A DNA stretch of 39,586 nt from Escherichia phage vB_EcoP_LNA3, in the sequence record MZ311862.1; one strand, written 5' to 3'. Made by a program: the position numbers and the translations under genes. Numbering within the stretch: the stretch's first letter is position 1; each line of letters opens with the position of its first letter. Below the pieces are notes generated by a model, which was not told the origin of the DNA, made no database searches, and saw only the letters and a program-made list of their open reading frames with translations. Positions 2,532 through 37,747 of the stretch are shown piece after piece.

Positions 2532-2581
2532 AAGGGCCTATAGATTTACCTTAACTATCACTATAGGGACTATAGGCCCTT
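2532..2581 (+). promoter_or_regulatory. perfect 12-bp inverted repeat (AAGGGCCTATAG / CTATAGGCCCTT) enclosing the gene 13 promoter; candidate RNase III site (T7 R13 position)
   Basis: Arms at 2532..2543 and 2570..2581 are exact reverse complements; the 26-nt loop holds the promoter core. Confidence 0.5.
2551..2569 (+). promoter_or_regulatory. phage RNA polymerase promoter (phi13 position)
   Basis: TTAACTATCACTATAGGGA, one of 11 copies of the conserved 19-mer; sits 32 bp upstream of the gene 13 start. Confidence 0.8.
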
Positions 2582-2600
2582 AAGGTTATAAGGAGACTTT

Positions 2601-3071
2601 ATGTATATTCGCAAGGCTACGGAACCGGATGTCCACTACTTTCTGTGGCATCTTTCAGCAGATGATGTTAATGAGTGCAAAGCAAACTATGGGTCAACCG
2701 TTGGTCTCTCTGAGAGACTGCTTAAGCATCTATCTCCTTCATCTGTGGTTTTAACGAACTGTGTAGGCGAAGTATTTGCCTATGGTGGAAACCAAGGGGA
2801 TAACGTATGGTTCTTGACTTCAAGTCTTGTCGAAAGGTTAAGTCCGAAAGACAAGCGGGAGTTCATTCAGCGCATCTCTGAGTACAGGGACTTAATGTTA
2901 GACCAATACGGGACCATCTGGAACTACGTGTGGTCAGGCAATAAGTCTCACATTAGATTCTTGCGGTTACTGGGAGCTAAGTTCCACCATGATGTGACTA
3001 TCAGTCCAGTAACAGGTGAGCGTTTTCAATTATTCACAATCTCTAAGGAGGACGTATGTGCGAACCCGTAA
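2601..3071 (+). CDS. internal virion protein A (gp13 position)
   Basis: 156-aa ORF with AAGGAG Shine-Dalgarno, between gp12 and gp14 as in T7; assigned by synteny only. Confidence 0.6.
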   Translation: MYIRKATEPDVHYFLWHLSADDVNECKANYGSTVGLSERLLKHLSPSSVVLTNCVGEVFAYGGNQGDNVWFLTSSLVERLSPKDKREFIQRISEYRDLMLDQYGTIWNYVWSGNKSHIRFLRLLGAKFHHDVTISPVTGERFQLFTISKEDVCANP

Positions 3072-3643
3072 GTATCGGTTTAGGTATCATGGCTGTAGCC
3101 GGGGCCACTATGTCCGCATCTCAACAGGCCAAAGCTGAGGGTGCTGCTATCGACGCTCAGAACAGACAGGCTCAGGAAATGGTTAAGCAGATGAACTACT
3201 CTGACGCCAACCTGAAGATGCAGGAGCGAGACCTGAAGGAGCAGCAGATGGCTGAACTGACAGAGACCACGTTAAATGGTATCCGCAATCATGGTATGGT
3301 CCGAGCTGCTGTAGCTGAGTCCGGTCTGGAAGGCAACTCTATGGACAGGATTGAACGTCAGGTCGCTGGAGACACAGTCAAGGAGAGAGCCGGGATTACC
3401 GAAAGCTACAACCGTGACTATGCGGCTATCTTCGGGAACCGTATCGCCAACATTGAGAACACCAAGTCTGCTATCCGTGGTCAAGGTACAATCATCAAGA
3501 CCAGCCCACTAGCTCATGCACTTAATGTTGCTAACGCCGGGATGCAGGGGTACGCTGCTGGTAAGTCAATATCTGGGGCATCAAGCTCTGGTGGTTCTGC
3601 ACCGATTAGTGCTGCTAAAGGCACACCTACAGGTCATAGCTAA
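3056..3643 (+). CDS. internal virion protein B (gp14)
   Basis: 195 aa starting MCEPVSIGLGIMAVAG..., hydrophobic N-terminus, Gln/Ala-rich, as in T7 gp14 (196 aa); TAAGGAGG upstream. Confidence 0.85.
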   Translation: MCEPVSIGLGIMAVAGATMSASQQAKAEGAAIDAQNRQAQEMVKQMNYSDANLKMQERDLKEQQMAELTETTLNGIRNHGMVRAAVAESGLEGNSMDRIERQVAGDTVKERAGITESYNRDYAAIFGNRIANIENTKSAIRGQGTIIKTSPLAHALNVANAGMQGYAAGKSISGASSSGGSAPISAAKGTPTGHS

Positions 3644-3654
3644 GAGGAGGACTA

Positions 3655-5937: not shown

Positions 5938-5942
5938 TAATA

Positions 5943-8900: not shown

Positions 8901-9830
8901 ATCGTGGAGCATAGCCTGACTGGTAGTAAGCGTAAGTTCGATGACCGCTGGCTGAAGACCGCTGGTATATCTGACGAGCAGTGGAATGGCATTAAGTCCC
9001 TAATCCGTGAGTCAGTGACTCGTGGTCCAGACGGGAAGTATACCATCAATGATAAGAAGGCGTTCAGTCAGGACCCAAGGGCTATGGACCTATGGCGTAT
9101 GGGTGACACCATCGCTGACGAAACGTTACTACGTCCTCATAAGCTGTCCAACATGGACGCAAAGGCTTATGGTCCTCTAGCTAAGACTGTCCTTCAGTTT
9201 AAGAACTTCGTCATCAAGTCCATCAATGGACGTACCATGCGAACCTTCTATAACGCCACGAAGAACAACCGAGCGATGGACGCTGCCCTGTCCACTGTGA
9301 TCTCTATGGGTCTTGCCGGTATCTACTACGTGGCTCAGGCTCATGTCAAGGCTTACGCTATGCAGGATGGTCGAGACCGTGACTACCTCAAGCAAGCTCT
9401 AGACCCGACGATGATTGGATATGCAGCTCTATCACGTAGTTCACACCTTGGTGGACCACTTGGGGTAGCTAACCTTCTGGGTGGCATCGCTGGATATGAG
9501 GACACTAAGATGCTCCGTTCGTCTATCCTACCTCGTTCGCCTACAGAGAAGCCTGAACGTTCCATCGCGTATGGTGCAGCTACAAGTGACCCTGTGATGA
9601 ATGTTGTTGGTAACTTCTTGGAGCAGGTGCCAGCTTTCGGATATGCTGCTAACGTTGGCGCTTCGGCTTACAACTTGGCTGGCTACCTCAAGGCTGATAC
9701 TCGTGTCAACGAGCGTGACTACATGACCGGGATGTATAACACCTTCCGTGAACTGGTACCGAACGACCCGATTACTCAGAAGTTGTTACTGGGAACGTTT
9801 GAGGAGCAAGGTATCCACATCAAGGACTAA
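5943..9830 (+). CDS. internal virion protein D (gp16) with N-terminal lytic transglycosylase domain
   Basis: 1295 aa; N-terminus MATRGIRNNNPGNIR...WEGM...FVTFDSPESGVRALGKNLLSY resembles the gp16 transglycosylase motif (T7 gp16 is 1318 aa). Confidence 0.9.
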   Translation: MATRGIRNNNPGNIRVSKDQWEGMTGDDGAFVTFDSPESGVRALGKNLLSYGRRGYDSIEKIINRWAPPNENDTKAYIDSVVAATGIPATQSLDLSNPDTLSALAQAISFQETGSRYNPEVYQKGVARALNGISPKTPPVSANVFDALTEGLKAKPKVALGENLPTAAGLNIEGQAPEAPNESFGEMFYKSTGETMQEREDRSTWFGFGSATEAEVKNSMIGVAIRAGQTEDSLDVIGDVFNPTRWNNHKWSREELDQIRNAGVLPQYYGVITGGSPQNLTELINLALENQKLDQEKAKAGTGAQLAAGVIGAGVDPLTYVPIAGQIGKGGKLVNKMFTVAAQSGALAGVSEMARTSVAGGDAHVAEAILGGALFGGGMTAIADGLGRALGRNTNEFAGPAIRLEARETARNVDGQDLSRLPIQEGEETFSHQGVKFADVPNEPGSVRLEDGSILIGENPLNPKTRQVFDEVIEPERAAAGVNLGGLTEIGLKLLRSENPEIRGVAADLVRSPTGMQSGASGKIGTTASDVFERLRAVDHRFYNDIDDAVTEALKDPYFQTAFWRDSGAFRQDIYQRVSMAIEDGSGNLKAELTPGELKVYDLLKNQFDAKREMMENPAMFGRPDSQSIFPGSRFNGTYVPHVYSKQMKELYIKELGSPEALQEAIKKSWLTSYASRPEVKKRVDEALLESDPTLTPEGLAAAVDKYANDKAYGISHTEQFERSSVMEENINGLVGLENNSFLEARNLFDSDMSIVLPNGQTFSVNNLREWDLDKIVPAYNRRVNGDIAIMAGTGKTTKDMKDLVETMMNKAGDDGKLKGEVSTLRDTLKILTGRARRDGADDAAFATVMRTMTDLSFFAKNAYMGVQNLTEIGGMLARGNVRAMLHGVPIFRDLAFRNKKVGASEIKDLHNVIFGKELDDSIRPSKQDVIDRLRSYSDLGRGTATALGTAKYYTGELAVRSPFTKVLNGTTNYLLDAGRQGFLSDIVEHSLTGSKRKFDDRWLKTAGISDEQWNGIKSLIRESVTRGPDGKYTINDKKAFSQDPRAMDLWRMGDTIADETLLRPHKLSNMDAKAYGPLAKTVLQFKNFVIKSINGRTMRTFYNATKNNRAMDAALSTVISMGLAGIYYVAQAHVKAYAMQDGRDRDYLKQALDPTMIGYAALSRSSHLGGPLGVANLLGGIAGYEDTKMLRSSILPRSPTEKPERSIAYGAATSDPVMNVVGNFLEQVPAFGYAANVGASAYNLAGYLKADTRVNERDYMTGMYNTFRELVPNDPITQKLLLGTFEEQGIHIKD

Positions 9831-9846
9831 ACTATCACTATAGGAA
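9828..9846 (+). promoter_or_regulatory. phage RNA polymerase promoter (phi17 position)
   Basis: TAAACTATCACTATAGGAA, overlapping the gp16 stop codon and 50 bp upstream of gene 17. Confidence 0.75.
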
Positions 9847-9895
9847 ACTGGAGGCGCTACCATAGGTCTCCTTTTAATTCATAACAGGAGGCATA

Positions 9896-12800
9896 ATGTC
9901 CACGATTACACAATTCCCTTCAGGAAACACTCAGTACAGGATTGAGTTCGACTACCTAGCCAGAACGTTTGTTGTTGTTACGCTGGTGAATAGCTCTAAC
10001 CCTACCATGAACCGTGTACTGGAAGTTGGTCGAGATTACCGATTCCTTAATCCAACGATGATTGAGATGTTGGTTGACCAATCAGGTTTCGACATCGTTC
10101 GCATTCACCGTCAGACTGGAACTGACTTAGTGGTAGACTTCAGGAATGGCTCAGTGTTGACAGCTAGTGACCTGACAAATTCAGAGCTTCAGGCTATCCA
10201 TATTGCAGAAGAAGGTCGAGACCAAACGGTTGACTTAGCGAAGGAATATGCCGATGCTGCTGGTAGCTCTGCTGGCAACGCTAAGGATAGCGAGGACGAA
10301 GCACGCCGAATCGCTGCGAGTATCAGGGAAGCTGGTCTAATTGGCTATATTACCCGTCGCTCCTTCGAGAAAGGCTACAACGTTACAACATGGAGCGAGG
10401 TCCTGCTATGGGAAGAGGATGGTGATTATTACCGCTGGGATGGTACGCTTCCAAAGAACGTTCCTGCTGGTTCAACTCCTGAAACTTCCGGTGGGATTGG
10501 ATTAGGTGCGTGGGTTAGTGTTGGTGATGCTGCTTTAAGGAGTCAGATTTCAAACCCGGAAGGGGCAATACTCTACCCTGAATTACATAGAGCACGCTGG
10601 CTTGATGAAAAAGATGTTCGTGGTTGGGGTGCTAAAGGGGATGGTGTCACTGATGATACAGCAGCGTTAACGAGAGCATTAAACGACACACCGGTTGGAC
10701 AAAGGATTAATGGCAATGGGAAGACATATAAGGTCACATCCCTGCCTGACATTAGTCGCTTCATCGACACTCGTTTCGTTTATGAGCGCATTCCCGGACA
10801 ACCTCTTTATTATGCCTCTGAAGGATTTGTTCAGGGTGAGCTGTTCAAAATAACGGACACCCCTTATTACAATGCGTGGCCTCAAGATAAAGCCTTTGTA
10901 TACGAGAACGTAATCTACGCACCTTATATGGGTAGTGACCGTCACGGTGTTAGCCGTCTCCATGTGTCATGGGTTAAGTCTGGTGACGATGGTCAAACAT
11001 GGTCTACTCCAGAGTGGCTTACCGACTTGCACCCAGAGTATCCTACAGTGAACTATCATTGTATGAGTATGGGTGTATGTCGCAACCGTCTGTTTGCCAT
11101 GATTGAAACACGTACTTTAGCCAATAACGCATTAACCAATTGTGCATTGTGGGATCGCCCCATGTCTCGTAGCCTGCATCTTACTGGTGGTATCACTAAA
11201 GCTGCAAATCAGCGATATGCAACAATACATGTACCAGACCACGGACTATTCGTGGGTGATTTTGTTAACTTCTCTAATTCTGCGGTAACAGGTGTATCCG
11301 GTGATATGACTGTTGCAACCGTAATAGATAAGGACAACTTCACGGTTCTTACACCAAACCAGCAGACTTCAGATTTGAATAACGCTGGAAAGAATTGGCA
11401 CATGGGTACTTCTTTCCATAAGTCTCCATGGCGTAAGACAGATCTTGGTCTAATCCCTCGTGTCACAGAGGTGCATAGCTTTGCTACTATTGATAACAAT
11501 GGCTTTGTTATGGGCTATCATCAAGGTGATGTAGCTCCACGAGAAGTTGGGCTTTTCTACTTCCCTGATGCTTTCAATAGCCCATCTAATTATGTTCGTC
11601 GTCAGATACCATCTGAGTATGAACCAGATGCGGCAGAGCCGTGCATCAAGTACTATGACGGTGTATTATACCTTATCACTCGTGGCACTCGTGGGGATAG
11701 ACTAGGTAGCTCTTTGCATCGTAGTAGAGACATAGGTCAGACTTGGGAGTCACTGAGATTTCCACATAATGTTCATCATACTACATTACCTTTTGCTAAA
11801 GTAGGGGATGACCTTATTATGTTTGGTTCAGAACGTGCAGAAAATGAATGGGAAGCATGTGCACCAGATGATCGTTACAAGGCATCTTATCCTCGCACCT
11901 TCTATGCACGCTTGAATGTAAACAATTGGAATGCAGATGATATTGAATGGGTTAACATCACTGACCAGATTTATCAGGGCGGAATAGTTAACTCAGGTGT
12001 AGGCGTTGGTTCGGTAGTTGTGAAGGATAATTACATCTACTACATGTTTGGTGGAGAAGACCATTTTAACCCATGGACATATGGAGATAACTCAGCGAAG
12101 GATCCATTCAAATCAGATGGTCATCCCTCAGATTTGTATTGCTACAAACTGAAGATTGGCCCAGACAATCGTGTTTCCAGGGATTTCAGGTATGGTGCTG
12201 TACCTAACAGAGCTGTTCCAGTGTTTTTTGATACGAATGGGATTCGCACTGTTCCTGCGCCAATGGAATTTACAGGGGATTTGGGTTTAGGTCATGTGAC
12301 CATTAGAGCCAGCACCAGTAGTAACATTCGCTCTGAAGTTTTAATGGAAGGTGAATATGGGTTTATCGGGAAATCTATACCGACTGATAACCCGGCAGGG
12401 CAGCGCATCATATTTTGCGGGGGTGAAGGCACCAGTTCAACGACTGGCGCACAGATTACGCTTTATGGTGCAAATAACACCGACTCAAGGCGAATAGTTT
12501 ACAACGGGGATGAGCATCTATTTCAGAGTGCTGATGTTAAGCCTTATAACGATAACGTCACTGCGCTTGGTGGGCCTAGCAACCGTTTCACCACCGCATA
12601 CCTCGGAAGTAACCCTATTGTTACTTCTAACGGGGAGAAGAAAACAGAGCCGGTAGTTTTTGATGATGCTTTCCTGGATGCCTGGGGTGACGTTCGCTAC
12701 ATCATGTACCAGTGGTTAGATGCTGTTCAACTGAAAGGCAATGATGCTCGTATTCACTTCGGGGTTATTGCTCAGCAAATTCGTGATGTATTCATTGCAC

Positions 12801-13090
12801 ATGGTCTGATGGACGAAAACAGTACGAATTGTCGTTATGCTGTTCTGTGCTATGACAAGTATCCACGGATGACCGATACGGTATTTTCGCACAATGAAAT
12901 CATTGAACACACTGACGAGGAGGGTAATGTCACTACTACGGAAGAACCTGTGTACACCGAGGTGGTTATTCACGAAGAGGGTGAGGAGTGGGGTGTTCGG
13001 CCTGACGGAATTTTCTTTGCTGAAGCCGCTTATCAGAGAAGAAAACTGGAAAGAATCGAAGCCAGACTTTCTGCTCTTGAACAGAAGTAA
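9896..13090 (+). CDS. tail spike: T7 gp17-like N-terminal adaptor fused to an endosialidase (endo-N-acetylneuraminidase) with a C-terminal intramolecular chaperone domain
   Basis: 1064 aa. N-terminus (FDYLARTFVVVTL) is like the T7 tail fibre N-terminus; the rest matches my memory of the K1F endosialidase, including Ser/Lys at positions 911/916 (SNGEKK) at the start of the last 154 residues. Confidence 0.85.
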   Translation: MSTITQFPSGNTQYRIEFDYLARTFVVVTLVNSSNPTMNRVLEVGRDYRFLNPTMIEMLVDQSGFDIVRIHRQTGTDLVVDFRNGSVLTASDLTNSELQAIHIAEEGRDQTVDLAKEYADAAGSSAGNAKDSEDEARRIAASIREAGLIGYITRRSFEKGYNVTTWSEVLLWEEDGDYYRWDGTLPKNVPAGSTPETSGGIGLGAWVSVGDAALRSQISNPEGAILYPELHRARWLDEKDVRGWGAKGDGVTDDTAALTRALNDTPVGQRINGNGKTYKVTSLPDISRFIDTRFVYERIPGQPLYYASEGFVQGELFKITDTPYYNAWPQDKAFVYENVIYAPYMGSDRHGVSRLHVSWVKSGDDGQTWSTPEWLTDLHPEYPTVNYHCMSMGVCRNRLFAMIETRTLANNALTNCALWDRPMSRSLHLTGGITKAANQRYATIHVPDHGLFVGDFVNFSNSAVTGVSGDMTVATVIDKDNFTVLTPNQQTSDLNNAGKNWHMGTSFHKSPWRKTDLGLIPRVTEVHSFATIDNNGFVMGYHQGDVAPREVGLFYFPDAFNSPSNYVRRQIPSEYEPDAAEPCIKYYDGVLYLITRGTRGDRLGSSLHRSRDIGQTWESLRFPHNVHHTTLPFAKVGDDLIMFGSERAENEWEACAPDDRYKASYPRTFYARLNVNNWNADDIEWVNITDQIYQGGIVNSGVGVGSVVVKDNYIYYMFGGEDHFNPWTYGDNSAKDPFKSDGHPSDLYCYKLKIGPDNRVSRDFRYGAVPNRAVPVFFDTNGIRTVPAPMEFTGDLGLGHVTIRASTSSNIRSEVLMEGEYGFIGKSIPTDNPAGQRIIFCGGEGTSSTTGAQITLYGANNTDSRRIVYNGDEHLFQSADVKPYNDNVTALGGPSNRFTTAYLGSNPIVTSNGEKKTEPVVFDDAFLDAWGDVRYIMYQWLDAVQLKGNDARIHFGVIAQQIRDVFIAHGLMDENSTNCRYAVLCYDKYPRMTDTVFSHNEIIEHTDEEGNVTTTEEPVYTEVVIHEEGEEWGVRPDGIFFAEAAYQRRKLERIEARLSALEQK

Positions 13091-15988: not shown

Positions 15989-16084
15989 CTGAATGAATAA
16001 CTATAGGCGAAAACTGAATTAATAAGCAGTTAGTAACCTATAGTTACTACCAGTCTAACCTACTGTTTTACAAGGAGTTTGGAC

Positions 16085-16103
16085 TTAACTATCACTATAG
16101 GGA
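16085..16103 (+). promoter_or_regulatory. phage RNA polymerase promoter (phiOR position)
   Basis: TTAACTATCACTATAGGGA downstream of gene 19, before the right-end region. Confidence 0.75.
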
Positions 16104-16279
16104 AGACCCCCGGTTACTTATAGTATTACTGTAGTGAATATACATATGCAGACTTTATGCAAGACCTTAGGAGGCAGACTCCGAGTTCTTACCTAAGGCT
16201 TGCACCGATGGAAGGAGGGTGATATTAATCATCACACCCTCATAACTTAAGTAGACCCAAGAGACAGGAGGTATGTAGC

Positions 16280-16438: not shown

Positions 16439-16676
16439 CGCCATCATGGTAACAATCAACGAAAGCAAGACCTAAGGTCAGTTCATAGCTGACGCTACTC
16501 TACTGACCTTAGCTACTGTAGTCAAGGACTTTAGGTAACACCTTAAGAGAAGCTCACTTAGGGTCATCCTACTTATTGGTCTATCCTAGTGTCGCCTGAC
16601 CTACGGTCCTTGACCTACAGTGGCTGTGGCCTACAGTAGTGACGATGAGTTTTGGACCAAAAGTTTGAGACCACAT

Positions 16677-16870: not shown

Positions 16871-16950
16871 AGTCACTAACCTACAGTCTCACTAACCTAC
16901 AGTCTCACTAACCTACAGTCTCACTAACCTACAGTCTCACTAACCTACAG
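16871..16950 (+). repeat. tandem array of 16-bp units TCTCACTAACCTACAG (four perfect copies plus one near-copy)
   Basis: Perfect units at 16887, 16903, 16919 and 16935; degenerate CCTACAG-containing units continue to about 16995 and also occur at 16600..16640. Confidence 0.9.
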
Positions 16951-17103
16951 TCTCAACCATAAGACACCAACACCTACAGTCATAGACCTACAGTTACTAG
17001 ACACAAAGCTATAGACTTAAGGTCAAAGACATGTTAGTCAAAGACTATATCCTATTACACCATGGGGCCGACGATAGCTTAATCAATATTATTTCAAATT
17101 ACC

Positions 17104-19142: not shown

Positions 19143-19149
19143 TTCTGAC

Positions 19150-19167
19150 TTAACTATCACTATAGGA
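19150..19167 (+). promoter_or_regulatory. phage RNA polymerase promoter directly upstream of the RNA polymerase gene
   Basis: TTAACTATCACTATAGGA about 72 bp before the gene 1 ATG. Confidence 0.7.
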
Positions 19168-19239
19168 CTCAAGGTCTAAGACTCCAAGTGAAAGACCAAA
19201 GAGACTTTAAGTGAAAGACTAATAACAAGGACTTTAAGT

Positions 19240-21921
19240 ATGAGCGTCATCTCTATTGATAAACACGACTTCTCTGATGTGTCGAACGCCATTGAGCCGT
19301 TTAACCTGCTGGCAGACCACTACGGGCAAGACCTTGCAGTCAAACAGCTTCAGCTTGAGCATGAGGCCTACACAGAAGGCGAGCGACGTTTCATCAAGAA
19401 CCTTGAGCGCCAGACCGAGCGCGGGGAACTGGCAGACAATCAGGTCGCCAAGCCTTTGATGCAGACTCTGGTGCCTAAGATTGCGCAAGCAGTCAAGGAG
19501 TGGCACGAAGGCCAAGACGGGAAGCTGTCAACCTCTCGTCCTAGCGTAGCGTTCACCAAGTTGAGCACTGAAGAGAAGGCCGTCAAGGACCGCTCTATGC
19601 GCATCTCCTGTGAGTCCGCTGCGGTTATCATACTGAAGGTCATACTCTCCAAGCTGGTCAAGCCTGAAGGGATACCGATTACACCTATGGCCTCAGCGTT
19701 AGGTCGCACACTTGAGGACGAAATCCGCTTCGGTCGCATCCGTGACAAGGAGAAGGAGCACTTCAAGAAGGCGATAGCTGAGAACCTGAACAAGCGAGCT
19801 GGGGCATCCTACAAGAAAGCCTACATGCAAGCTGTAGAGGCATCCATGCTGGAGCAAGGCCAACTGGAAGATGCGTGGGGGACTTGGAGTCCGACCGAAG
19901 CGGTACACGTTGGCATCAAGATGCTCGAGATTGTCATCCAGTCCACACAACTGGTCGAGCTTAAGCGTTATGGTGCTGGCAATGCGGCGGCTGACGTTGA
20001 GATGGTCCACCTGTCAGACTTCTGGGTAAAGAAGATGGCACAACGTGGATTCAGCCTTGCGGGTATTGCGCCAGTCTATCAGCCTTGCGTCGTTCCACCT
20101 AAACCGTGGACTGGTGTAGTAGGCGGTGGGTACTGGGCCAAAGGTCGCAGACCGTTACCATTGATTCGCTTAGGGTCTAAGTCTGCGGTAGCACGTTATG
20201 AAGACGTGTACATGCCTGAAGTCTATGACGCTGTGAACATCATTCAAAATACACCTTGGAAAGTGAACAAGAAGGTATTGAACGTGGTGAACATGGTCGA
20301 GAAGCTGAACAACACGCCTATTGATGACATCCCTCAGATGGAACCGCTGAAGCCTGAGGACTATGCTGGTGAGACCGAGGAGGAACTCAAGGCATGGAAG
20401 AAGGCTGCTGCTGGTATCTATCGCCGCGAGAAGGCCCGACAGTCACGCAGATTATCACTGAGCTTTATCATCAACCAAGCGAATAAGTTCTCTCAGTTCA
20501 AGGCCATCTGGTTTCCATACAACATGGACTGGCGCGGTCGAGTCTACGCTGTGCCGATGTTCAACCCTCAGGGTAACGACATACAGAAGGGTCTCCTGAC
20601 TCTGGCAGTCGGTAAGCCTATTGGTGCTGACGGTTTCAAATGGCTGAAGGTCCATGGTGCAAACTGCGCGGGTGTTGATAAAGTCACCTTCGAGGAGCGC
20701 ATCAAGTGGGTGGAAGACAACCACGAAAACATCATGGCTGCTGCTAAGGCACCGATGGATAGTATTGAGTGGTGGGGCAAGTTAGACTCTCCGTTCTGCT
20801 TCCTTGCGTTCTGCTTCGAGTATGCTGGTGTAATGCACCACGGATTGTCTTACTCCTGCTCACTGCCGATAGCGTTCGATGGGTCATGCTCTGGTATTCA
20901 GCACTTCAGTGCGATGCTTCGTGACCACATCGGTGGACATGCAGTAAACCTGACGCCATCCGGCATGGTACAAGACATCTACCGCATTGTGTCTGACCGC
21001 ATTGAGGAGGAGCTTAAAGTCCTGCTGATTACCGGTACTGACAACGAGATGGTCACTCACGAGGATAAGAAAACTGGTGAGATTACCGAACGTATCAAGC
21101 TGGGGACACGAGAGCTGGCCCGTCAGTGGTTGACATACGGTATGTCACGCAAGGTCACTAAGCGTTCAGTCATGACTCTGGCATACGGGTCGAAAGAGTA
21201 CGGCTTCGCTGACCAAGTTTACGAGGACATCGTGATGCCAGCGATTGACTCAGGATCTGGCGCTATGTTCACCGAGCCGAGCCAAGCGTCTCGCTTCATG
21301 GCTAAGATGATTTGGGAAGCTGTGAGTGTGACCGTAGTTGCTGCGGTTGACGCGATGAAGTGGCTTCAAGGTGCTGCCAAGCTGCTGGCTGCTGAGGTGA
21401 AGGACAAGAAGACTGGAGAAATCCTGAAGCCTTGCCTTCCGGTACACTGGGTCACTCCTGATGGTTTCCCGGTCTGGCAGGAATACCGCAAGAAGGATAC
21501 CACTCGTCTGAACCTGATGTTCTTAGGGTCATTCAACCTTCAGCCTACCGTCAACAGAGGTACGAAGAAAGAGCTGGACAAACACAAGCAGGAGTCAGGC
21601 ATTAGCCCGAACTTCGTCCACTCACAAGATGGTAGCCACCTCCGCAAGACTGTAGTCCATACTCACCGCAAGTATGGCGTGATGTCGTTCGCAGTGATTC
21701 ACGATAGCTTCGGGACCATCCCGGCTGACGCTGAGTATCTGTTCCGTGGGGTCCGTGAGACTATGGTCGAGACCTACCGCGACAACGATGTGCTGCTTGA
21801 CTTCTACGAGCAGTTTGAATACCAGCTTCACGAGAGCCAGCGCGATAAGTTGCCAGAGCTTCCGAAGAAAGGTAAACTGAATATTGAGGACATCTTGTCT
21901 TCAGACTTTGCATTCGCTTAA
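19240..21921 (+). CDS. T7-like single-subunit DNA-dependent RNA polymerase (gp1)
   Basis: 893 aa, collinear with T7 RNAP (DFSDV...PFN.LADHYG...; C-terminal ...DILSSDFAFA). Specificity loop at 21541..21600 reads QPTVNRGTKKELDKHKQESG. Confidence 0.97.
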   Translation: MSVISIDKHDFSDVSNAIEPFNLLADHYGQDLAVKQLQLEHEAYTEGERRFIKNLERQTERGELADNQVAKPLMQTLVPKIAQAVKEWHEGQDGKLSTSRPSVAFTKLSTEEKAVKDRSMRISCESAAVIILKVILSKLVKPEGIPITPMASALGRTLEDEIRFGRIRDKEKEHFKKAIAENLNKRAGASYKKAYMQAVEASMLEQGQLEDAWGTWSPTEAVHVGIKMLEIVIQSTQLVELKRYGAGNAAADVEMVHLSDFWVKKMAQRGFSLAGIAPVYQPCVVPPKPWTGVVGGGYWAKGRRPLPLIRLGSKSAVARYEDVYMPEVYDAVNIIQNTPWKVNKKVLNVVNMVEKLNNTPIDDIPQMEPLKPEDYAGETEEELKAWKKAAAGIYRREKARQSRRLSLSFIINQANKFSQFKAIWFPYNMDWRGRVYAVPMFNPQGNDIQKGLLTLAVGKPIGADGFKWLKVHGANCAGVDKVTFEERIKWVEDNHENIMAAAKAPMDSIEWWGKLDSPFCFLAFCFEYAGVMHHGLSYSCSLPIAFDGSCSGIQHFSAMLRDHIGGHAVNLTPSGMVQDIYRIVSDRIEEELKVLLITGTDNEMVTHEDKKTGEITERIKLGTRELARQWLTYGMSRKVTKRSVMTLAYGSKEYGFADQVYEDIVMPAIDSGSGAMFTEPSQASRFMAKMIWEAVSVTVVAAVDAMKWLQGAAKLLAAEVKDKKTGEILKPCLPVHWVTPDGFPVWQEYRKKDTTRLNLMFLGSFNLQPTVNRGTKKELDKHKQESGISPNFVHSQDGSHLRKTVVHTHRKYGVMSFAVIHDSFGTIPADAEYLFRGVRETMVETYRDNDVLLDFYEQFEYQLHESQRDKLPELPKKGKLNIEDILSSDFAFA

Positions 21922-21933: not shown

Positions 21934-22149
21934 ATGAAATTTGCACACAAGCAGGCTGGAGTTAATGGCGGGACTCAAATCGTGACCGTAACAGAACACA
22001 ACGGCATGGGTCTGGTGAAGACCACGGTTATCCCTACCGAGATGTCAAAGCAGCTTAACGTCCCGTTCAAGACCCTCGTCCATCTTGTGGAGTCCAGCCA
22101 CGAGAAATACCTGAAAGACGCAGTGTCCAAGATGGAGCAGACCAAATGA
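21934..22149 (+). CDS. hypothetical protein
   Basis: 71-aa ORF with AGGAGAG Shine-Dalgarno immediately after gene 1. Confidence 0.55.
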   Translation: MKFAHKQAGVNGGTQIVTVTEHNGMGLVKTTVIPTEMSKQLNVPFKTLVHLVESSHEKYLKDAVSKMEQTK

Positions 22150-22225
22150 CAGACCTCCAGTTACTGGCCTTGTGGCTGGGATCACTCGCAGTATTCACTT
22201 TAATCCAGCGCAGAAGAGGTTAACC

Positions 22226-22243
22226 TAAACTATCACTATAGGA
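22226..22243 (+). promoter_or_regulatory. phage RNA polymerase promoter (phi1.1 position)
   Basis: TAAACTATCACTATAGGA; by analogy with T7 this region may hold the primary replication origin. Confidence 0.75.
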
Positions 22244-22244
22244 T

Positions 22245-22288
22245 TAGACTCAAGGTCATGACTCAAAGTCGTGGCCTTCATGATTAAC
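22245..22288 (+). ncRNA. conserved hairpin element, candidate RNase III site (T7 R1.1 position)
   Basis: TAGACTCAAGGTCAT-GACTCAAAGTC-GTGGCCTTCATGATTAAC; same stem as the elements at 13683 and 29603. Confidence 0.45.
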
Positions 22289-23772: not shown

Positions 23773-23782
23773 CTAAACGTCA

Positions 23783-23820
23783 ACCCAGTGGTCTTCGGAC
23801 TGCTGGGTTTCTTTGCTTTG
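23783..23820 (+). terminator. intrinsic terminator (T7 TE early-terminator position)
   Basis: CCCAGTGGTC-TTCG-GACTGCTGGG stem-loop (10 bp with two G-U pairs, UUCG loop) followed by TTTCTTTGCTTTG. Confidence 0.7.
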
Positions 23821-23857
23821 TGCTAGCAAGCTATCGTCTGGGCCACCAGCTAGACCC

Positions 23858-23875
23858 TAAGCTATCACTATAGGA
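23858..23875 (+). promoter_or_regulatory. phage RNA polymerase promoter (variant, G at -12)
   Basis: TAAGCTATCACTATAGGA, 28 bp upstream of the 23903 gene. Confidence 0.65.
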
Positions 23876-23902
23876 CAACCATCAACAACCTAAGGAGACT
23901 CT

Positions 23903-24900: not shown

Positions 24901-25059
24901 ATGACTGACGTAGAAAAGAAATACATCGTGGAGCTTGAGGGTCGCGTTCAGTCATTCGAGGTTCCGGTGTACGCAAAGTCTCTTGAAGAGGCTACCCTGA
25001 AGTCCCAAGAGTATGAGGACGCTGGGTTTGTGGTCGGACGGATTCGTCCTGAGACCTAA
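24901..25059 (+). CDS. gp2-like inhibitor of host RNA polymerase
   Basis: 52 aa from ATG 24901 (AAGGAG 8 nt upstream): ...[33 protein letters not shown] matches T7 gp2 (SFEVPIYAETLDEAL...PAGFEVTRVRP). The track's 24823 start is a GTG with no Shine-Dalgarno. Confidence 0.7.
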
Positions 25060-25074
25060 ACTATCACTGTAGGA
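25057..25074 (+). promoter_or_regulatory. phage RNA polymerase promoter (phi2.5 position; variant, G at -2)
   Basis: TAAACTATCACTGTAGGA upstream of the SSB gene. Confidence 0.6.
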
Positions 25075-25115
25075 CAGACGTCAAGTTCGTAACTTTAAAT
25101 AGGAGATTTACACCA

Positions 25116-27208: not shown

Positions 27209-27424
27209 ATGATTAAACTTATCGAATTTCTAGGTCGTCTGGTGGTGCGTGGTTATCGTCGTGCTGCGGTACTGGAACGAAAGGTAGAAAAGAAGACTGC
27301 TGATGGCGCGGCTGATGCTGCTGCTCTGGCTGACAAGCTGACCATCGCGTCACTGGAAGCTGGCATGAAGGCTCGTCAGGCTGATACCAAAGCTGACAAG
27401 TTGTCTCAGTTCTTCAAAGACTAA
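27209..27424 (+). CDS. hypothetical protein
   Basis: 71-aa Ala/Lys-rich ORF with AAGGAG Shine-Dalgarno. Confidence 0.5.
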   Translation: MIKLIEFLGRLVVRGYRRAAVLERKVEKKTADGAADAAALADKLTIASLEAGMKARQADTKADKLSQFFKD

Positions 27425-27440
27425 ACTATCACCTTAGGGA
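27422..27440 (+). promoter_or_regulatory. degenerate phage-promoter-like sequence (phi3.8/phi4 position)
   Basis: TAAACTATCACCTTAGGGA differs from the consensus at -4 and -3; function uncertain. Confidence 0.35.
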
Positions 27441-27492
27441 TGGGACCATGAGTCCTGTCCCTTTGTTCGCATTTGTGACTAAGGAGTGACCG

Positions 27493-29599: not shown

Positions 29600-29602
29600 G
29601 TC

Positions 29603-29645: not shown

Positions 29646-29663
29646 TAAAGCGGAGGATTAACC

Positions 29664-31835
29664 ATGTTTGACCTTAAGAGTATCTGGGGTTCTGACATCG
29701 AGACCAACGGTCTCCTTGATACAGTCTCCCAGTTTCACTGTGGGGTCCTGATTAACGCCGAGTCGAATGAGACCCTTAAGTATGGGGTAGCTCCGATGGT
29801 CGGTATCGTCGGCGGCTTCAAAGAGTATGTTCATAAAGTGGAAGAGATTGCCGCATCACCTGATGGTATGCTGGTATTCCATAACGGTATCAACTATGAC
29901 GTCCCGGCTATAGACAAGCTGAAGCGTTTGTACTTTGGGAAACGCTTTAACTTCCCGAAACATAAGATGATTGATACCTTGGTGCTGGGACGCTTGATGT
30001 ATCCAAACATTAAGTTCTCAGACATGGGCGCGGTGAAAGCTGGTCGTCTGCCACCTAAGATGATGGGACGCCAGTCTCTTGAGGCTTGGGGCTATCGTCT
30101 CGGTGAGATGAAAGGTGAGTACAAACACGATTACGTTGCCAAGTGCAAGGCTGAAGGTATCGAATATAAGGCTGGGGACGAATGGTTGTTCCCGTCTCAG
30201 GAGATGCTGGACTATAACGTTCAAGACGTTGTGGTCACACTGGCGTTGTTCAAGAAGTTCCTGACTGACAAGTATTACTTCCAGTCTGAACAGTTCGCTT
30301 TCGACCAGATTTATGCGTTGCGTCTGGAACATGATGCTGCGTGGACCTGTGCGAAGATGGAACGTAACGGCTATCCGATGAACACCGAGATGGTCGAAGG
30401 TTTATATCGTGAACTCACCGTCAAACGTGCAGAGCTGCTGGACAAGCTGCGTTCGACTTTCGGCAGCTGGTACGCACCAAAGGGAGGCAAGGAGTTCTTC
30501 AAGCACCCACGGACAGGCAAGGACCTTCCGAAGTATCCGCGCGTCGTGTATCCTAAGGTCGGGTCAGTATTCAAGAAGCCGAAGAACAAAGCTCAACGCT
30601 TAGGTCTGGAGCCTTGCGAGTTCGACTCACGAGACACGATGGAAGGAGCACCGTTCACGCCAATCACTTACGTTGAGTTTAATCCGGGGAGCGGAGACCA
30701 CTTAGCGAAAGTCTTGATGGAGCGTGGTTGGGAGCCTGTTGACTTCACTGACACTGGGAAACCTGTAGTCGATGACGAGACGTTGGAACACGTTAAGTTA
30801 CCAGACGCAGAGGCTCAGGCTTGCGTAGAGCTGGTCCGTGAGTATCTGGTAGTCCAGAAGCGTATCGGACAGGCTGCTGAAGGTAAGAACGCATGGTTGA
30901 AACTTGTAGGTCCAGACGGGCGTATGCACGGTTCAATCAACCCTTGTGGAGCAGTAACCGGACGTGCGACACATAGTTCACCAAACATGGCTCAGGTCCC
31001 GGCTAACGGTGCTCCATATGGTGAGACTTGCCGTGGTGCTTTCGGTGCAGCGTGGAACAAGAAGGACGGTAAGCCAGACCCTTGGATTCAAGTAGGCGTG
31101 GATGCTTCAGGTCTTGAGCTTCGTTGTCTGGGGAACCGAGCGGCTCCGTTTGATGGTGGTGCCTATGCGAAGACTGTGGTAGAAGGTGACATCCACTGGG
31201 CCAACGCAGTAAACGCTGGGTTAGCACCTAACGTCCCACGCGATAAGTCGAACCACGACCATGATGCTTTCCGTAACAACGCTAAGACGTTCATCTATGC
31301 GTTCCTGTATGGTGCAGGGGCCGCTAAGATTGGACTGATAGTAGGCGGTGGTAAGAAGGAAGGTTCAGCTCTCATGAAGAAATTCATTGAGGGTACACCA
31401 GCTATTAAAGACCTCAGGGAAGCTGTGCGTAATACGTTAATATCAGACTCTAAGTGGGTGGACGGAGAGAACATCGTCAAGTGGAAACGCCGTTGGTTGC
31501 GTGGACTTGATGGTCGTCGTATCCACATCCGGTCTCCGCACTCAGCACTTAACGCCTTACTTCAAGGTGATGGTGCGGTAGTATGTAAGCACTGGATTGT
31601 CGAGACTGAACGTATGCTCGAAGAGGCAGGGTATGTTCACGGCTGGGAAGGTGACTTTGCGTACATGGCTTGGGTGCATGACGAATTGCAGATTGCGTGT
31701 CGTACTCAGGAGATTGCCGAAGAAGTCGTAAAGATTGCTCAACTTGCTATGCGTAAGGTGGGTGAGTTCTATAACTTTAAATGTGTCATTGATACCGAAG
31801 GTAAGATTGGACCAACGTGGAAGGAGTGTCACTAA
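29664..31835 (+). CDS. DNA polymerase (gp5, family A)
   Basis: 723 aa collinear with T7 DNA polymerase (SDIETNGLL...FHCGV, ...SLEAWGYRLGEMKGEYK..., ending GPTWKECH). Confidence 0.96.
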   Translation: MFDLKSIWGSDIETNGLLDTVSQFHCGVLINAESNETLKYGVAPMVGIVGGFKEYVHKVEEIAASPDGMLVFHNGINYDVPAIDKLKRLYFGKRFNFPKHKMIDTLVLGRLMYPNIKFSDMGAVKAGRLPPKMMGRQSLEAWGYRLGEMKGEYKHDYVAKCKAEGIEYKAGDEWLFPSQEMLDYNVQDVVVTLALFKKFLTDKYYFQSEQFAFDQIYALRLEHDAAWTCAKMERNGYPMNTEMVEGLYRELTVKRAELLDKLRSTFGSWYAPKGGKEFFKHPRTGKDLPKYPRVVYPKVGSVFKKPKNKAQRLGLEPCEFDSRDTMEGAPFTPITYVEFNPGSGDHLAKVLMERGWEPVDFTDTGKPVVDDETLEHVKLPDAEAQACVELVREYLVVQKRIGQAAEGKNAWLKLVGPDGRMHGSINPCGAVTGRATHSSPNMAQVPANGAPYGETCRGAFGAAWNKKDGKPDPWIQVGVDASGLELRCLGNRAAPFDGGAYAKTVVEGDIHWANAVNAGLAPNVPRDKSNHDHDAFRNNAKTFIYAFLYGAGAAKIGLIVGGGKKEGSALMKKFIEGTPAIKDLREAVRNTLISDSKWVDGENIVKWKRRWLRGLDGRRIHIRSPHSALNALLQGDGAVVCKHWIVETERMLEEAGYVHGWEGDFAYMAWVHDELQIACRTQEIAEEVVKIAQLAMRKVGEFYNFKCVIDTEGKIGPTWKECH

Positions 31836-33794: not shown

Positions 33795-33868
33795 TTTACT
33801 GGGTCGGACTTCTTGCCCTTTACTGCATGTACAAGTGGTTCGGGTCGAACAACCGCCCTAAACACTGA
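33776..33868 (+). CDS. small hydrophobic protein (gene 6.3 position)
   Basis: 30-aa ORF with AAGGAGG 7 nt upstream, overlapping the gp6 3' end. Confidence 0.35.
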   Translation: MDTIHVIYWVGLLALYCMYKWFGSNNRPKH

Positions 33869-33922
33869 GTCTAGCCGATAGTCATATCCTATCAATCCAA
33901 CAGTCATCCATAGGTGAAACAC

Positions 33923-33941
33923 TAAACTATCACTATAGGGA
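33923..33941 (+). promoter_or_regulatory. phage RNA polymerase promoter (phi6.5 position)
   Basis: TAAACTATCACTATAGGGA, exact consensus. Confidence 0.8.
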
Positions 33942-34004
33942 CTTTAGGACCTAAGATATGACTATAAGATAGACTTTAGTCTTAACTTAAAGAGGAGATT
34001 CAAG

Positions 34005-34277: not shown

Positions 34278-34291
34278 CTGTAGGAGGGACT

Positions 34292-34516
34292 ATGTGTTTC
34301 AGTCCGAAGATTAGCACTCCGAAGCCTTCGGTCCAAGCACCTGAGCCAGCACCTCTGAGTGAGGAAGTTGCGTCAGTTGACATCGGGGCTGAATCAGATG
34401 TGGACACCAACGAGACCAAAGGTATCAAAGACCTGAAGGTCAAGAAGGAGTCTGCACCTAAAGATAAATCGTCAGTAAGTCGCGCTATGCGTAACTCTGG
34501 CGTCAACATGGGGTAA
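34292..34516 (+). CDS. gp6.7-like virion protein
   Basis: 74 aa; MCFSPKISTPK...EPAPL matches the T7 gp6.7 N-terminus. Confidence 0.8.
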   Translation: MCFSPKISTPKPSVQAPEPAPLSEEVASVDIGAESDVDTNETKGIKDLKVKKESAPKDKSSVSRAMRNSGVNMG

Positions 34517-34520
34517 GACA

Positions 34521-34925
34521 ATGCTACCATATCTCAACTCACGCGAAGGTCGCCACATGTGCGCTTGTCGCCTCTGGGAAGACGGGCAGTCTAACTTCAA
34601 GTCATTCGAGGACTTCAAGGCTCATACTTACCGTATGGCTGACGAGTTCGACGGTGAAGAATACACAATCTACGATGTATCAGGTCAACCAGTAGCGTAT
34701 CTCTACATGCTGGCTACCGCATCTTGGCACAGACCGACTCCCGGTCTTGACCTTTCAATCGTCGCTATTCGTCGTGACTCGCAGTCCTACCGCAAGGTTC
34801 TTGAGACTGTCAGACGCATCATAGACGAAGAGTGCAAGCGTTGGGGTCTTGGCTGGTATTCTCGTGTCAAGCATGTTTCTGGGTCGGTAGACATCGTAAC
34901 AACTAAGGAGATTAACCGTGGGTAA
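34521..34925 (+). CDS. gp7-like virion protein
   Basis: 134 aa (T7 gp7 133 aa) at the syntenic position. Confidence 0.65.
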   Translation: MLPYLNSREGRHMCACRLWEDGQSNFKSFEDFKAHTYRMADEFDGEEYTIYDVSGQPVAYLYMLATASWHRPTPGLDLSIVAIRRDSQSYRKVLETVRRIIDEECKRWGLGWYSRVKHVSGSVDIVTTKEINRG

Positions 34926-35166
34926 ATCAATCAGTAAGGCTTTCAAGAAAGTGGTGAAAAGTACGTTAGGGACAGTAGGTCTTGGCTCTGACGATGCACC
35001 TAAGGTTGTTGAGGCCCAGACCCCAGCAGCACCAGTGGAAGTACCGAACGATAAAGTGGAAGATGTGGATACCGAAGCAACCGCATCTGACGAGAAGAAA
35101 GTGAAGCGTTCAGGTAAGCGTAGCCTTCAGGTCTCTCGCACCTCTGGTGGTGGTATTTCTATTTAA
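34918..35166 (+). CDS. gp7.3-like tail-associated protein
   Basis: 82 aa; MGKSISKAFKKVVKS... ending ...SLQVSRTSGGGISI, like T7 gp7.3 (...SLSVARSSGGGINI). GTG start 7 nt after TAAGGAG. Confidence 0.75.
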   Translation: MGKSISKAFKKVVKSTLGTVGLGSDDAPKVVEAQTPAAPVEVPNDKVEDVDTEATASDEKKVKRSGKRSLQVSRTSGGGISI

Positions 35167-35177
35167 GGAGGTGACGA

Positions 35178-36746
35178 ATGGCTGAACGTGAAGGGTTCGC
35201 TGCTGAAGGAGCCAAAGCGGTCTATGACCGCCTGAAGAACGGTAGACAGCCATATGAGACACGCGCTCAGAATTGTGCTGCTGTCACTATCCCGTCACTG
35301 TTTCCTAAGGAGTCCGACAACTCGTCTACTGAGTACACCACTCCGTGGCAAGCTGTAGGTGCTAGATGTTTGAACAACTTGGCTGCAAAGCTGATGTTGG
35401 CATTATTCCCCCAGTCACCGTGGATGCGACTTACAGTCTCCGAATATGAGGCTAAGACCTTGAGTCAGGACTCAGAGGCTGCTGCTCGTGTTGACGAGGG
35501 GCTTGCTATGGTCGAGCGTGTGTTGATGGCCTACATGGAGACAAACAGTTTCCGTGTGCCATTGTTCGAAGCTCTGAAGCAGCTTATAGTCTCCGGTAAC
35601 TGTCTGCTCTACATTCCAGAGCCTGAACAGGGAACCTACAGTCCCATGCGAATGTACCGCTTAGTGTCTTACGTTGTTCAACGTGATGCGTTCGGTAACA
35701 TCTTGCAGATTGTGACTCTCGACAAGGTAGCGTTTAGTGCTCTACCGGAAGACGTGAAGTCTCAACTCAACGCAGACGACTATGAGCCTGACACCGAGCT
35801 GGAAGTGTATACGCACATTTACCGTCAGGACGACGAATATCTACGCTACGAGGAAGTGGAAGGCATTGAGGTAGCAGGGACCGAGGGTTCCTACCCACTG
35901 ACTGCATGTCCATACATCCCGGTACGAATGGTTCGACTGGATGGTGAAGACTACGGTCGTTCTTACTGCGAGGAGTATCTGGGAGACCTGAACTCGCTGG
36001 AGACGATTACAGAAGCTATCACTAAAATGGCTAAGGTAGCCTCCAAGGTGATTGGCCTCGTTAACCCGAACGGTATCACGCAACCTCGACGTCTGAACAA
36101 GGCGGCTACAGGTGAGTTCGTGGCTGGTCGCGTTGAGGACATCAACTTCCTGCAACTGACGAAAGGTCAGGACTTTACGATTGCCAAGTCGGTGGCTGAT
36201 GCTATCGAGCAACGTTTAGGCTGGGCCTTCCTTCTTAATAGTGCTGTTCAGCGTAATGCCGAGCGAGTCACTGCTGAAGAGATTCGTTATGTTGCTGGCG
36301 AACTGGAGGCGACCTTAGGTGGCGTGTACTCAGTACAGTCACAAGAGCTTCAGTTACCTATCGTCCGTGTTCTGATGAACCAGCTTCAGTCTGCTGGAAT
36401 GATTCCTGACCTTCCGAAAGAAGCGGTAGAGCCTACTGTCTCCACTGGTCTGGAAGCGTTAGGTCGTGGTCAAGACTTAGAGAAGCTGACTCAGGCGGTG
36501 AACATGATGACTGGACTTCAGCCTCTGGCTCAGGACCCGGACATCAACTTGCCGACCCTTAAGCTGCGACTCCTGAACGCTCTGGGTATAGACACCGCTG
36601 GATTACTCCTGACGCAAGACGAGAAGATTCAGCGCATGGCTGAACAGTCGTCTCAACAGGCAGTAGTCCAAGGTGCTGGTGCTGCTGGTGCCAACATGGG
36701 AGCTGCTGTAGGTCAGGGAGCTGGTGAGGACATGGCTCAAGCCTAA
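35178..36746 (+). CDS. head-to-tail connector / portal protein (gp8)
   Basis: 522 aa collinear with T7 gp8 (YETRAQNCA..TIPSLFPK, TPWQAVGAR, AFGN.LQ.VT.D, LGGVYS..SQELQLP). Confidence 0.95.
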   Translation: MAEREGFAAEGAKAVYDRLKNGRQPYETRAQNCAAVTIPSLFPKESDNSSTEYTTPWQAVGARCLNNLAAKLMLALFPQSPWMRLTVSEYEAKTLSQDSEAAARVDEGLAMVERVLMAYMETNSFRVPLFEALKQLIVSGNCLLYIPEPEQGTYSPMRMYRLVSYVVQRDAFGNILQIVTLDKVAFSALPEDVKSQLNADDYEPDTELEVYTHIYRQDDEYLRYEEVEGIEVAGTEGSYPLTACPYIPVRMVRLDGEDYGRSYCEEYLGDLNSLETITEAITKMAKVASKVIGLVNPNGITQPRRLNKAATGEFVAGRVEDINFLQLTKGQDFTIAKSVADAIEQRLGWAFLLNSAVQRNAERVTAEEIRYVAGELEATLGGVYSVQSQELQLPIVRVLMNQLQSAGMIPDLPKEAVEPTVSTGLEALGRGQDLEKLTQAVNMMTGLQPLAQDPDINLPTLKLRLLNALGIDTAGLLLTQDEKIQRMAEQSSQQAVVQGAGAAGANMGAAVGQGAGEDMAQA

Positions 36747-36761
36747 ACTATCACTATAGGA
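36744..36761 (+). promoter_or_regulatory. phage RNA polymerase promoter (phi9 position)
   Basis: TAAACTATCACTATAGGA overlapping the gp8 stop codon. Confidence 0.75.
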
Positions 36762-36840
36762 ACAACACCGTAAGTCCAACTCTAGGTGAGTCAACTAGAC
36801 GAGGCAGGTGTTACCTATTAACTACCAAAGGAGAGACTTA

Positions 36841-37725
36841 ATGTCCCAATCAGTTTATGCCGAGTTCGGCGTTAGCCCTAATGCAATCACTGGCTCCGTT
36901 GAGGACCTTAACGAACACCAACAGTCTATGCTGGAGAAGGACGTAGCTGTCCGTGATGGCGATGACGCCATTACCTTCAAGCAACTGGAAGCCGAGCAGG
37001 AAGAGGCGACCGAAGAAGACGAGAACGTAGAAGAGACTGAGGGTGATGAAGACAACGAGTCCGATGACGAAGAGTCTGAGACCGATGATGATCAGCCTGA
37101 GTTCATCGAACTTGGTGATGCACCGAAAGAGCTGACTGAAAGTGTCACCGCTCTGGATGAAAACGAAGCTGCATTTGACGACATGGTGTCTTCTGCTGTA
37201 GAAGCTGGCAAGGTCACTGCTGATGAAATTACCGCTATCAAGGCTGAATACGCCAAGGACGGTAAGCTGTCTGACGCATCCTACGCTAAGTTGCAGGAAG
37301 CAGGTTACACCAAGCGCTTCGTAGATTCGTTTGTCCGTGGTCAGGAAGCTCTGGCTGAACAGTATGCCGCTGGTGTGGTTCGCTACGCTGGTGGTGCTGA
37401 ACAGTTTAATCGCATCCTGTCACACCTTGAGTCCAACGACCCGTCAACTCGTGAAGCATTGGAAGCTGCCATCGTTCGTAAGGACATTGCGACTACCAAA
37501 GCTCTGCTGAATCTGGCTGGCAAGACTCTGGGTAAAGCTGTGGGTGTTAAACCTCAGCGTACCATCACCACTCAGGCTAAACCTGTGGTCGCACCTAAGG
37601 CTCCTCAGACCGAAGCATTCAGCTCCAAGGCTGACATGATTAAGGCTATGAGTGACCCGCGATACCTGCGTGACGCTAAGTACACTATGGAAGTCCGCGC
37701 TAAGGTAGCTGCCTCAAGCCTGTAG
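36841..37725 (+). CDS. capsid assembly scaffolding protein (gp9)
   Basis: 294 aa from ATG 36841 (AAAGGAGAG upstream), highly acidic, C-terminal ...MIKAMSDPRY as in T7 gp9; the track's 36808 start lacks a Shine-Dalgarno. Confidence 0.9.
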   Translation: MSQSVYAEFGVSPNAITGSVEDLNEHQQSMLEKDVAVRDGDDAITFKQLEAEQEEATEEDENVEETEGDEDNESDDEESETDDDQPEFIELGDAPKELTESVTALDENEAAFDDMVSSAVEAGKVTADEITAIKAEYAKDGKLSDASYAKLQEAGYTKRFVDSFVRGQEALAEQYAAGVVRYAGGAEQFNRILSHLESNDPSTREALEAAIVRKDIATTKALLNLAGKTLGKAVGVKPQRTITTQAKPVVAPKAPQTEAFSSKADMIKAMSDPRYLRDAKYTMEVRAKVAASSL

Positions 37726-37728
37726 GAC

Positions 37729-37747
37729 TAAACTATCACTATAGGGA
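37729..37747 (+). promoter_or_regulatory. phage RNA polymerase promoter (phi10 position)
   Basis: TAAACTATCACTATAGGGA, exact consensus, about 105 bp upstream of the capsid gene. Confidence 0.85.

Follow-up and report, generated by a model that had tools for sequence, protein, structure and literature searches.

Genome layout and the polymerase gene

The window analysed here, the whole 39,586-nucleotide sequence of Escherichia phage vB_EcoP_LNA3 (MZ311862.1), carries a gene for a single-subunit RNA polymerase and eleven copies of a short repeat with the core of a T7 promoter, which almost certainly represent the full promoter set of that polymerase. The genome is that of a circularly permuted K1F-like coliphage of the genus Kayfunavirus, subfamily Studiervirinae. 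By PHROG matches, the window opens with T7-type genes 12-19 and carries genes 0.3-10 in its second half. The left end of the genome corresponds to position 16676, to which the first 20 nt of the K1F genome and of the EcoDS1 genome align. Together with the identities to K1F given below, these data indicate that a linear, terminally repeated genome was assembled in circularly permuted form. The assembly appears to have collapsed the ends, leaving a single copy of the terminal repeat of about 179 bp.

The polymerase is encoded by gene 1 (19240..21921, + strand). The 893 aa product (gp1) belongs to the same enzyme family as T7 RNA polymerase (RNAP), to the structures of which it aligns over its full length (E = 0), and it is 98% identical to gp1 of K1F. 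At the DNA level, the gene shares 95-99% identity with many Kayfunavirus records, and more than 200 phage records span 80% or more of the polymerase region including both flanking promoters.

Eleven promoter sites and their counterparts in EcoDS1

All promoter coordinates are given from -17 to +6, and comparisons with EcoDS1 (Kayfunavirus EcoDS1, RefSeq NC_011042) extend over these 23 nt. The EcoDS1 record annotates eleven 23-bp promoters, ahead of genes 1, 1.1, 1.6, 2.5, 4, 6.5, 9, 10, 13 and 17 and at phiOR, which correspond one-to-one to the sites of the window: seven are identical, three differ at a single position, and phi6.5 agrees fully when the annotation is corrected by 1 nt.

Two of the sites, all of which lie on the + strand, flank the polymerase gene. 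The promoter 5' of gene 1 (19148..19170, +1 at 19165; ACTTAACTATCACTATAGGACTC) has its +1 75 nt upstream of the gene and is identical to the EcoDS1 'phi' at 2244-2266, and the one at the phi1.1 position 3' of gene 1 (22224..22246, +1 at 22241; CCTAAACTATCACTATAGGATTA) differs from the EcoDS1 'phi' at 6034 by one base. They are followed by phi1.6 (23856..23878, +1 at 23873), located 30 nt before gene 1.6, and phi2.5 (25055..25077, +1 at 25072), which has a G at -3; both are identical to their EcoDS1 namesakes. The promoter 5' of gene 4, coding for the primase/helicase (27420..27442, +1 at 27437; CACCTTAGGG), differs at one position from the EcoDS1 'phi' at 11107. Next come phi6.5 (33921..33943, +1 at 33938) and phi9 (36742..36764, +1 at 36759), the latter identical to EcoDS1 phi9 and with its TAA serving as the stop codon of gene 8. 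The last site of this half, phi10 (37727..37749, +1 at 37744), lies 108 nt 5' of the major capsid gene and differs from the EcoDS1 'phi' at 20819 by one base. The three remaining sites, located in the first half of the window, are all identical to EcoDS1: phi13 (2549..2571, +1 at 2566), phi17 (9826..9848, +1 at 9843), which lies upstream of the endosialidase tail spike gene and whose TAA is the stop codon of gene 16, and phiOR (16083..16105, +1 at 16100), located after gene 19 and before the right genome end.

A terminator for the phage polymerase, T-phi, follows gene 10 (39029..39066, + strand). It consists of a 17-bp stem and a T run and is near-identical to the 'phiTE' annotated at 22122-22157 in EcoDS1. 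The window and EcoDS1 have in common the T-phi terminator as well as the early terminator TE; the first 12 nt of the TE annotated in EcoDS1 are found at 23782-23811, directly behind the ligase gene, with phi1.6 beginning 45 nt further on.

Exhaustive search and promoter sequence

A search with TAAACTATCACTATAGGGA, allowing up to three mismatches, returned exactly eleven matches, all on the + strand (starts at 2551, 9828, 16085, 19150, 22226, 23858, 25057, 27422, 33923, 36744 and 37729), and none in 100 dinucleotide-preserving shuffles used as a control. A 23-column weight matrix (-17 to +6) was then built from the eleven sites and used to scan both strands. The sites scored 31.8-38.4 bits, the runner-up (33950) reached 12.6 bits, and no further copies were found inside genes or on the - strand. 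The original prediction, for which the repeat had been collected by eye, had listed the same eleven + strand positions while allowing that copies inside genes might have been missed; the exhaustive scan revealed none that it had overlooked. The copy that it had called degenerate, at 27422, is the weakest of the set (31.8 bits).

All eleven sites point in the direction of the genes, at 30-180 nt 5' of the start of an open reading frame (ORF). The earlier description of the repeats as intergenic was nearly right, but at four of them (9828-9830, 25057-25059, 27422-27424 and 36744-36746) the promoter TAA, at -15 to -13, is also the stop codon of the upstream ORF.

The sequence between -12 and -9 is highly uniform, with A in 10 of the 11 sites followed by C, T and A in all of them. 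Extended to -8, this region reads ACTAT in 10/11 sites and GCTAT in the remaining one, phi1.6 (23856..23878), which is the sole site with a G at -12. The core TCACTATAGG (-8 to +2) is exact in nine of the eleven, the exceptions being 25057 (G at -3) and 27422 (C at -4 and T at -3). At +3, six sites have an A and five a G.

Matches to TCACTATAGG with one mismatch were also found at 11042 (- strand), 15998, 16037 (- strand), 16827 and 17107. These are not promoters: the -17 to -9 part is missing from them, and their scores stay below 5 bits. The stretch from the end of gene 19 to phiOR contains an inverted repeat (AACTATAGG ... CCTATAGTT, 15996-16048) with the promoter core on both strands, and neither arm amounts to a full promoter. 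The runner-up of the matrix scan is a weak promoter-like sequence (CCTAAGATATGACTATAAGATAG, 33950-33972) located 29 nt 3' of phi6.5. It is identical in K1F, SR04, Salmonella phage CHRF_20120 and Enterobacter phage KKP_3263, the four other genomes that were scanned in full, and the leader RNA at this site has no unusual predicted fold (z = 0.39). It is possibly a decayed duplicate of a promoter.

Comparison with T7 and T3 promoters

The promoters of the window share with those of T7 the 23-bp architecture, the -8 to +2 core and the +1 G. Against the 17 annotated T7 promoters used as reference, the -12 to -9 bases read ACTA instead of CGAC, in agreement with the original prediction, whose further statement that -8 to +3 is identical to T7 holds from -8 to +2 and fails at +3, where the sites are split between A and G. 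The divergence extends further upstream than had been noticed, since the earlier account omitted -17 to -14. The consensus also differs from T7 at -17 (A or C versus T), -16 (C in 11/11 versus A), -15 (T in 11/11 versus A) and -14 (A in eight and T in three, versus T), so that the upstream differences total eight (-17, -16, -15, -14, -12, -11, -10 and -9) and not four.

No match to the 23-mer T7 consensus, with its -17 to -8 sequence of the TAATACGACT type, is present in the window at up to three mismatches, or on the + strand at up to six. Likewise, the T3-type promoter AATTAACCCTCACTAAAGGGAGA has no match in the window at up to three mismatches, and the polymerase has N at T7 position 748, not the D that goes with the T3 class. 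Conversely, a scan of the T7 genome identified no K1F-type site.

The distribution of the promoters also recalls that of T7, in which ten positions are shared (1.1, 1.6, 2.5, 3.8/4, 6.5, 9, 10, 13, 17 and OR). However, T7 has 17 promoters versus 11 in the window, and its phiOL, phi1.3, phi4c, phi4.3 and phi4.7 are without equivalent here. In T7, the promoter TAA that acts as an upstream stop codon lies at -17 to -15, whereas in the window it lies at -15 to -13; the overlap has therefore been kept while its register moved by two bases. Moreover, only the E. coli C promoter is found just 5' of gene 1 in T7, where the window has a phage promoter, which all six Kayfunavirus genomes examined possess and which is annotated as 'phi' in EcoDS1.

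Conservation of the promoter set in Kayfunavirus

The same promoter set was found in the genomes that were scanned in full, EcoDS1 being compared through its annotation. K1F (NC_007456 / DQ111067) has eleven promoters at equivalent gene junctions, ten of which are identical to those of the window from -15 to +3; single-base differences occur at +5 in phi10 and at +3 to +6 in phiOR. Neither the GenBank nor the RefSeq record of K1F carries any promoter annotation. SR04, CHRF_20120 (with one extra site before gene 5) and KKP_3263 also harbor the set, and a 2026 genome note describes the repeat CTWAACTATCACTATAGG in another Kayfunavirus and reads it as a promoter (PMC13298934).

Even the deviations from the consensus are conserved. 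For example, the G at -3 of phi2.5 is present in 6/6 Kayfunavirus genomes compared, and the CACCTTAGGG deviation 5' of gene 4 is the same in K1F, SR04, KKP_3263 and EcoDS1, whereas CHRF_20120 deviates differently. The gene 1 promoter is present in K1F, SR04 and KKP_3263, and in a variant form in CHRF_20120.

Specificity loop of the RNA polymerase

In the loop region, residue n of the window polymerase corresponds to residue n-10 of T7 in the HMMER alignment; R746, N748, S754, N756, Q758 and V761 (T7 numbering, used hereafter) are thus window residues 756, 758, 764, 766, 768 and 771. All six are the same in K1F, and the five from N748 onward also in SR04 and KKP_3263; the whole loop is that of K1F except for one K-to-R change at its tip (position 763). 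With respect to T7, it carries Q754S, R756N and I761V.

The base-specific contacts of T7 RNAP are made by R746, N748, R756 and Q758, and direct coupling analysis (DCA) links residue 748 with -11 and -10, 756 with -10 and -9, 757 and 758 with -8, and 746 with -7 (PMC11880802). The retention of R746 and Q758 would fit the retained C at -7 and T at -8, and the loss of R756 would fit the change from C to A at -9. The window combines the elements that define a K1F-class promoter system, namely the core, the ACTAT region, a polymerase in the same genome with N748, N756 and Q758 as well as S754 and V761, and synteny with EcoDS1.

Published experiments on K1F-type pairs

This polymerase-promoter pair is already known: it is annotated in public records, has been tested in vitro and is used as a T7-orthogonal tool, which makes the observation real but ordinary. 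Temme et al. (NAR 2012) used the beta-hairpin to sort phage polymerases into subfamilies, found that the members of each have one promoter binding region in common, and replaced Q744-I761 of T7 by the K1F hairpin while changing -12 to -7 of the promoter (PMC3458549). The resulting T7(K1F) polymerase gave a 17-fold induction on its own promoter and was reported to be orthogonal to T7, T3 and N4 (PMC3458549). It carries 754S, 756N and 761V and has ACTAT as its cognate -12 to -8 sequence (PMC11880802 Table 2), and a 2025 NAR study places the K1F cluster among nine specificity clusters (PMC11880802). The graft thus shares with the window the three loop residues and ACTAT. It differs by its T7 scaffold, its T7 AT-rich loop and a promoter that is of T7 type outside -12 to -7, with TAATA at -17 to -13 versus the native MCTWA. 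We write the native promoter consensus as ACTAAACTATCACTATAGGGA and the hybrid form as TAATAACTATCACTATAGGGAGA.

An orthogonal system for expression and mutagenesis has also been built from the native K1F RNA polymerase and the PK1F promoter (PMC12218169). The closest experimental evidence comes from Ro45lw, a Kayfunavirus species, whose purified polymerase transcribes from ACTTAACTATCACTATAGGGACT and starts at the first G, as mapped by transcript sequencing (Takatsuki et al., J Biol Chem 2025, PMC12272871). The minimal promoter defined in that work, ACTTAACTATCACTATAGGGA (PMC12272871), is identical to window positions 16083-16103, which correspond to phiOR from -17 to +4. The length given there for the Ro45lw polymerase is 894 aa and that for T7 is 884 aa (the true value being 883), suggesting 893 aa as in the window. 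Initiation at the +1 G by the cognate polymerase, shown in vitro for Ro45lw, is predicted for the present phage. The checks proposed earlier, an exhaustive scan and in vitro transcription, have in this sense already been performed for close relatives. The original prediction of a pair orthogonal to T7 is likewise in line with reports of largely orthogonal pairs in the K1F class, and it is not new, such pairs being established for K1F-like phages.

Alternative explanations

Several observations weigh against the reading of the repeats as promoters that the phage polymerase recognizes with a specificity distinct from that of T7. The promoters of this phage are known from their sequence, and we infer their function in vivo and their temporal classes. 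The accommodation of the C at -11 with N748 unchanged would fall outside the known T7 contacts. In addition, the orthogonality of the Temme graft set is limited, with a ratio of 8 and relatively high non-cognate activity (PMC11880802), and in a PURE-system screen there were hints that T7 RNAP cross-reacts to some extent with foreign promoters. The first point would also suit an interpretation of the repeats as a dispersed element of another kind (a signal for RNA processing, replication or packaging, for example) that merely resembles the core of a T7 promoter. Some T7 promoters do double as replication origins. Nevertheless, we consider such an element extremely improbable, given that the -8 to +2 core is identical to that of T7 promoters, that all copies are directed towards genes and lie just 5' of them at T7 promoter positions, and that the 21-nt sequence shared with phiOR drives initiation in vitro by a congeneric polymerase (PMC12272871). 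A separate question is whether the pair is truly orthogonal, or whether T7 RNAP uses these promoters appreciably and the window polymerase uses those of T7. The figures for the graft set and the common -8 to +2 core speak for such cross-use. However, the native promoters differ from those of T7 at eight upstream positions and not four, each of the two genomes is devoid of the site type of the other, and Temme et al. describe four pairs as highly orthogonal (PMC3458549). Furthermore, mutators based on the native K1F polymerase showed an approximately 46,000-fold on-target increase versus 6- to 27-fold on non-cognate promoters, the comparison having been made with MmP1 and VP4 and not with T7 (PMC12218169). 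Appreciable cross-use therefore seems unlikely to us, and the K1F-type pair is probably largely orthogonal to T7, as the literature reports for the class (PMC3458549, PMC11880802, PMC12218169, PMC12272871).

The location of the specificity determinants is a different matter. The original prediction had attributed the change at -12 to -9 to substitutions in the stretch encoded at 21541-21600, taken to hold the residues that read -11 and -10. Translation and alignment to T7 RNAP from the PDB confirmed that this stretch reads QPTVNRGTKKELDKHKQESG and that its T7 counterpart is QPTINTNKDSEIDAHKQESG (Q758-G777). It belongs to the specificity-loop hairpin, differs from T7 at 8 of its 20 positions, and contains I761V, one of the grafted changes. 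In outline, the idea of a diverged loop matched to the -12 to -9 change is correct. The attribution to this particular stretch was wrong and we regard it as very unlikely to explain the specificity, because K1F specificity was transferred by swapping T7 Q744-I761 alone (PMC3458549), with 754S, 756N and 761V as the effective differences, and residues 762-777 are unneeded for retargeting. Of the three changes that suffice to retarget T7 RNAP to ACTAT, only I761V falls inside QPTVNRGTKKELDKHKQESG, Q754S and R756N lying just upstream. The contacts and DCA couplings concern 746, 748, 756, 757 and 758, among which N748 and Q758 are unchanged here, and Q758 is the only T7 contact residue within the stretch. 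The specificity determinants consequently lie at T7 positions 754 and 756, and not in the stretch highlighted earlier.

Other genome features

The endosialidase tail spike gene (9896-13090) codes for a protein of 1064 aa with 98% identity to the K1F endosialidase, so that a specificity of the phage for K1-capsulated E. coli is probable. In EcoDS1 the tail fibre gene is 2304 nt long, versus 3195 nt in the window. The DNA polymerase gene (29664-31835) is one uninterrupted ORF of 723 aa; gene 5 is thus intact, whereas in K1F it is annotated as two joined pieces around an HNH endonuclease insert. Finally, the 16-mer TCACTAACCTACAGTC occurs as 5.2 perfect tandem copies (16873-16955) immediately inward of the left genome end and upstream of the early genes, an array that resembles the short repeat arrays beside the terminal repeat of T7.

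Proposed transcription program and biological implications

By analogy with T7, the host RNA polymerase would transcribe the early region from the left end (16676), leading to synthesis of the phage polymerase. The latter would start at the first G of GG(G/A) in each 23-bp promoter. The promoters before genes 1.1, 1.6, 2.5 and 4 would drive the DNA-metabolism genes, those before 6.5, 9, 10, 13 and 17 together with phiOR the virion genes, and the terminator would act after gene 10. Discrimination from T7 at -12 to -9 would be achieved through the beta-hairpin of the specificity loop (R756 to N and Q754 to S), while -17 to -14 would face the diverged AT-rich loop.

The K1F-type pair is a standard orthogonal part in synthetic biology, to which the window adds one more near-identical isolate. 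Its practical value lies in annotation, as confident labels can be given to the eleven sites, the terminator and the polymerase.

The AT-rich loop region is the only part that leaves room for novelty. In T7, the AT-rich recognition loop (residues 93-101) reportedly binds the bases of the -17 to -14 region, according to Cheetham et al. in 1999. This loop is largely replaced in the window polymerase (KAKRG-KRP-T in T7 versus DGKLSTSRPSV), with the loss of most basic residues, and is followed by an 11-aa insertion (19510-19600, gp1 residues ~91-121). The region is not discussed in the 2025 study of specificity clusters (PMC11880802). We put forward, as a tentative and rather doubtful proposal, that the native Kayfunavirus pair has a second specificity determinant, in which the invariant C at -16 and T at -15 face the diverged AT-rich loop and which the loop-graft and DCA studies leave unaddressed, and that the gene 1 promoter adds a feedback on polymerase synthesis. 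If the -16 and -15 bases and the AT-rich loop co-evolved, orthogonality to T7 would be greater for the native enzyme than for the T7(K1F) graft. The promoter located 75 nt 5' of gene 1 would give the polymerase a positive feedback on its own synthesis, in contrast to T7, which is without a phage promoter at this position.

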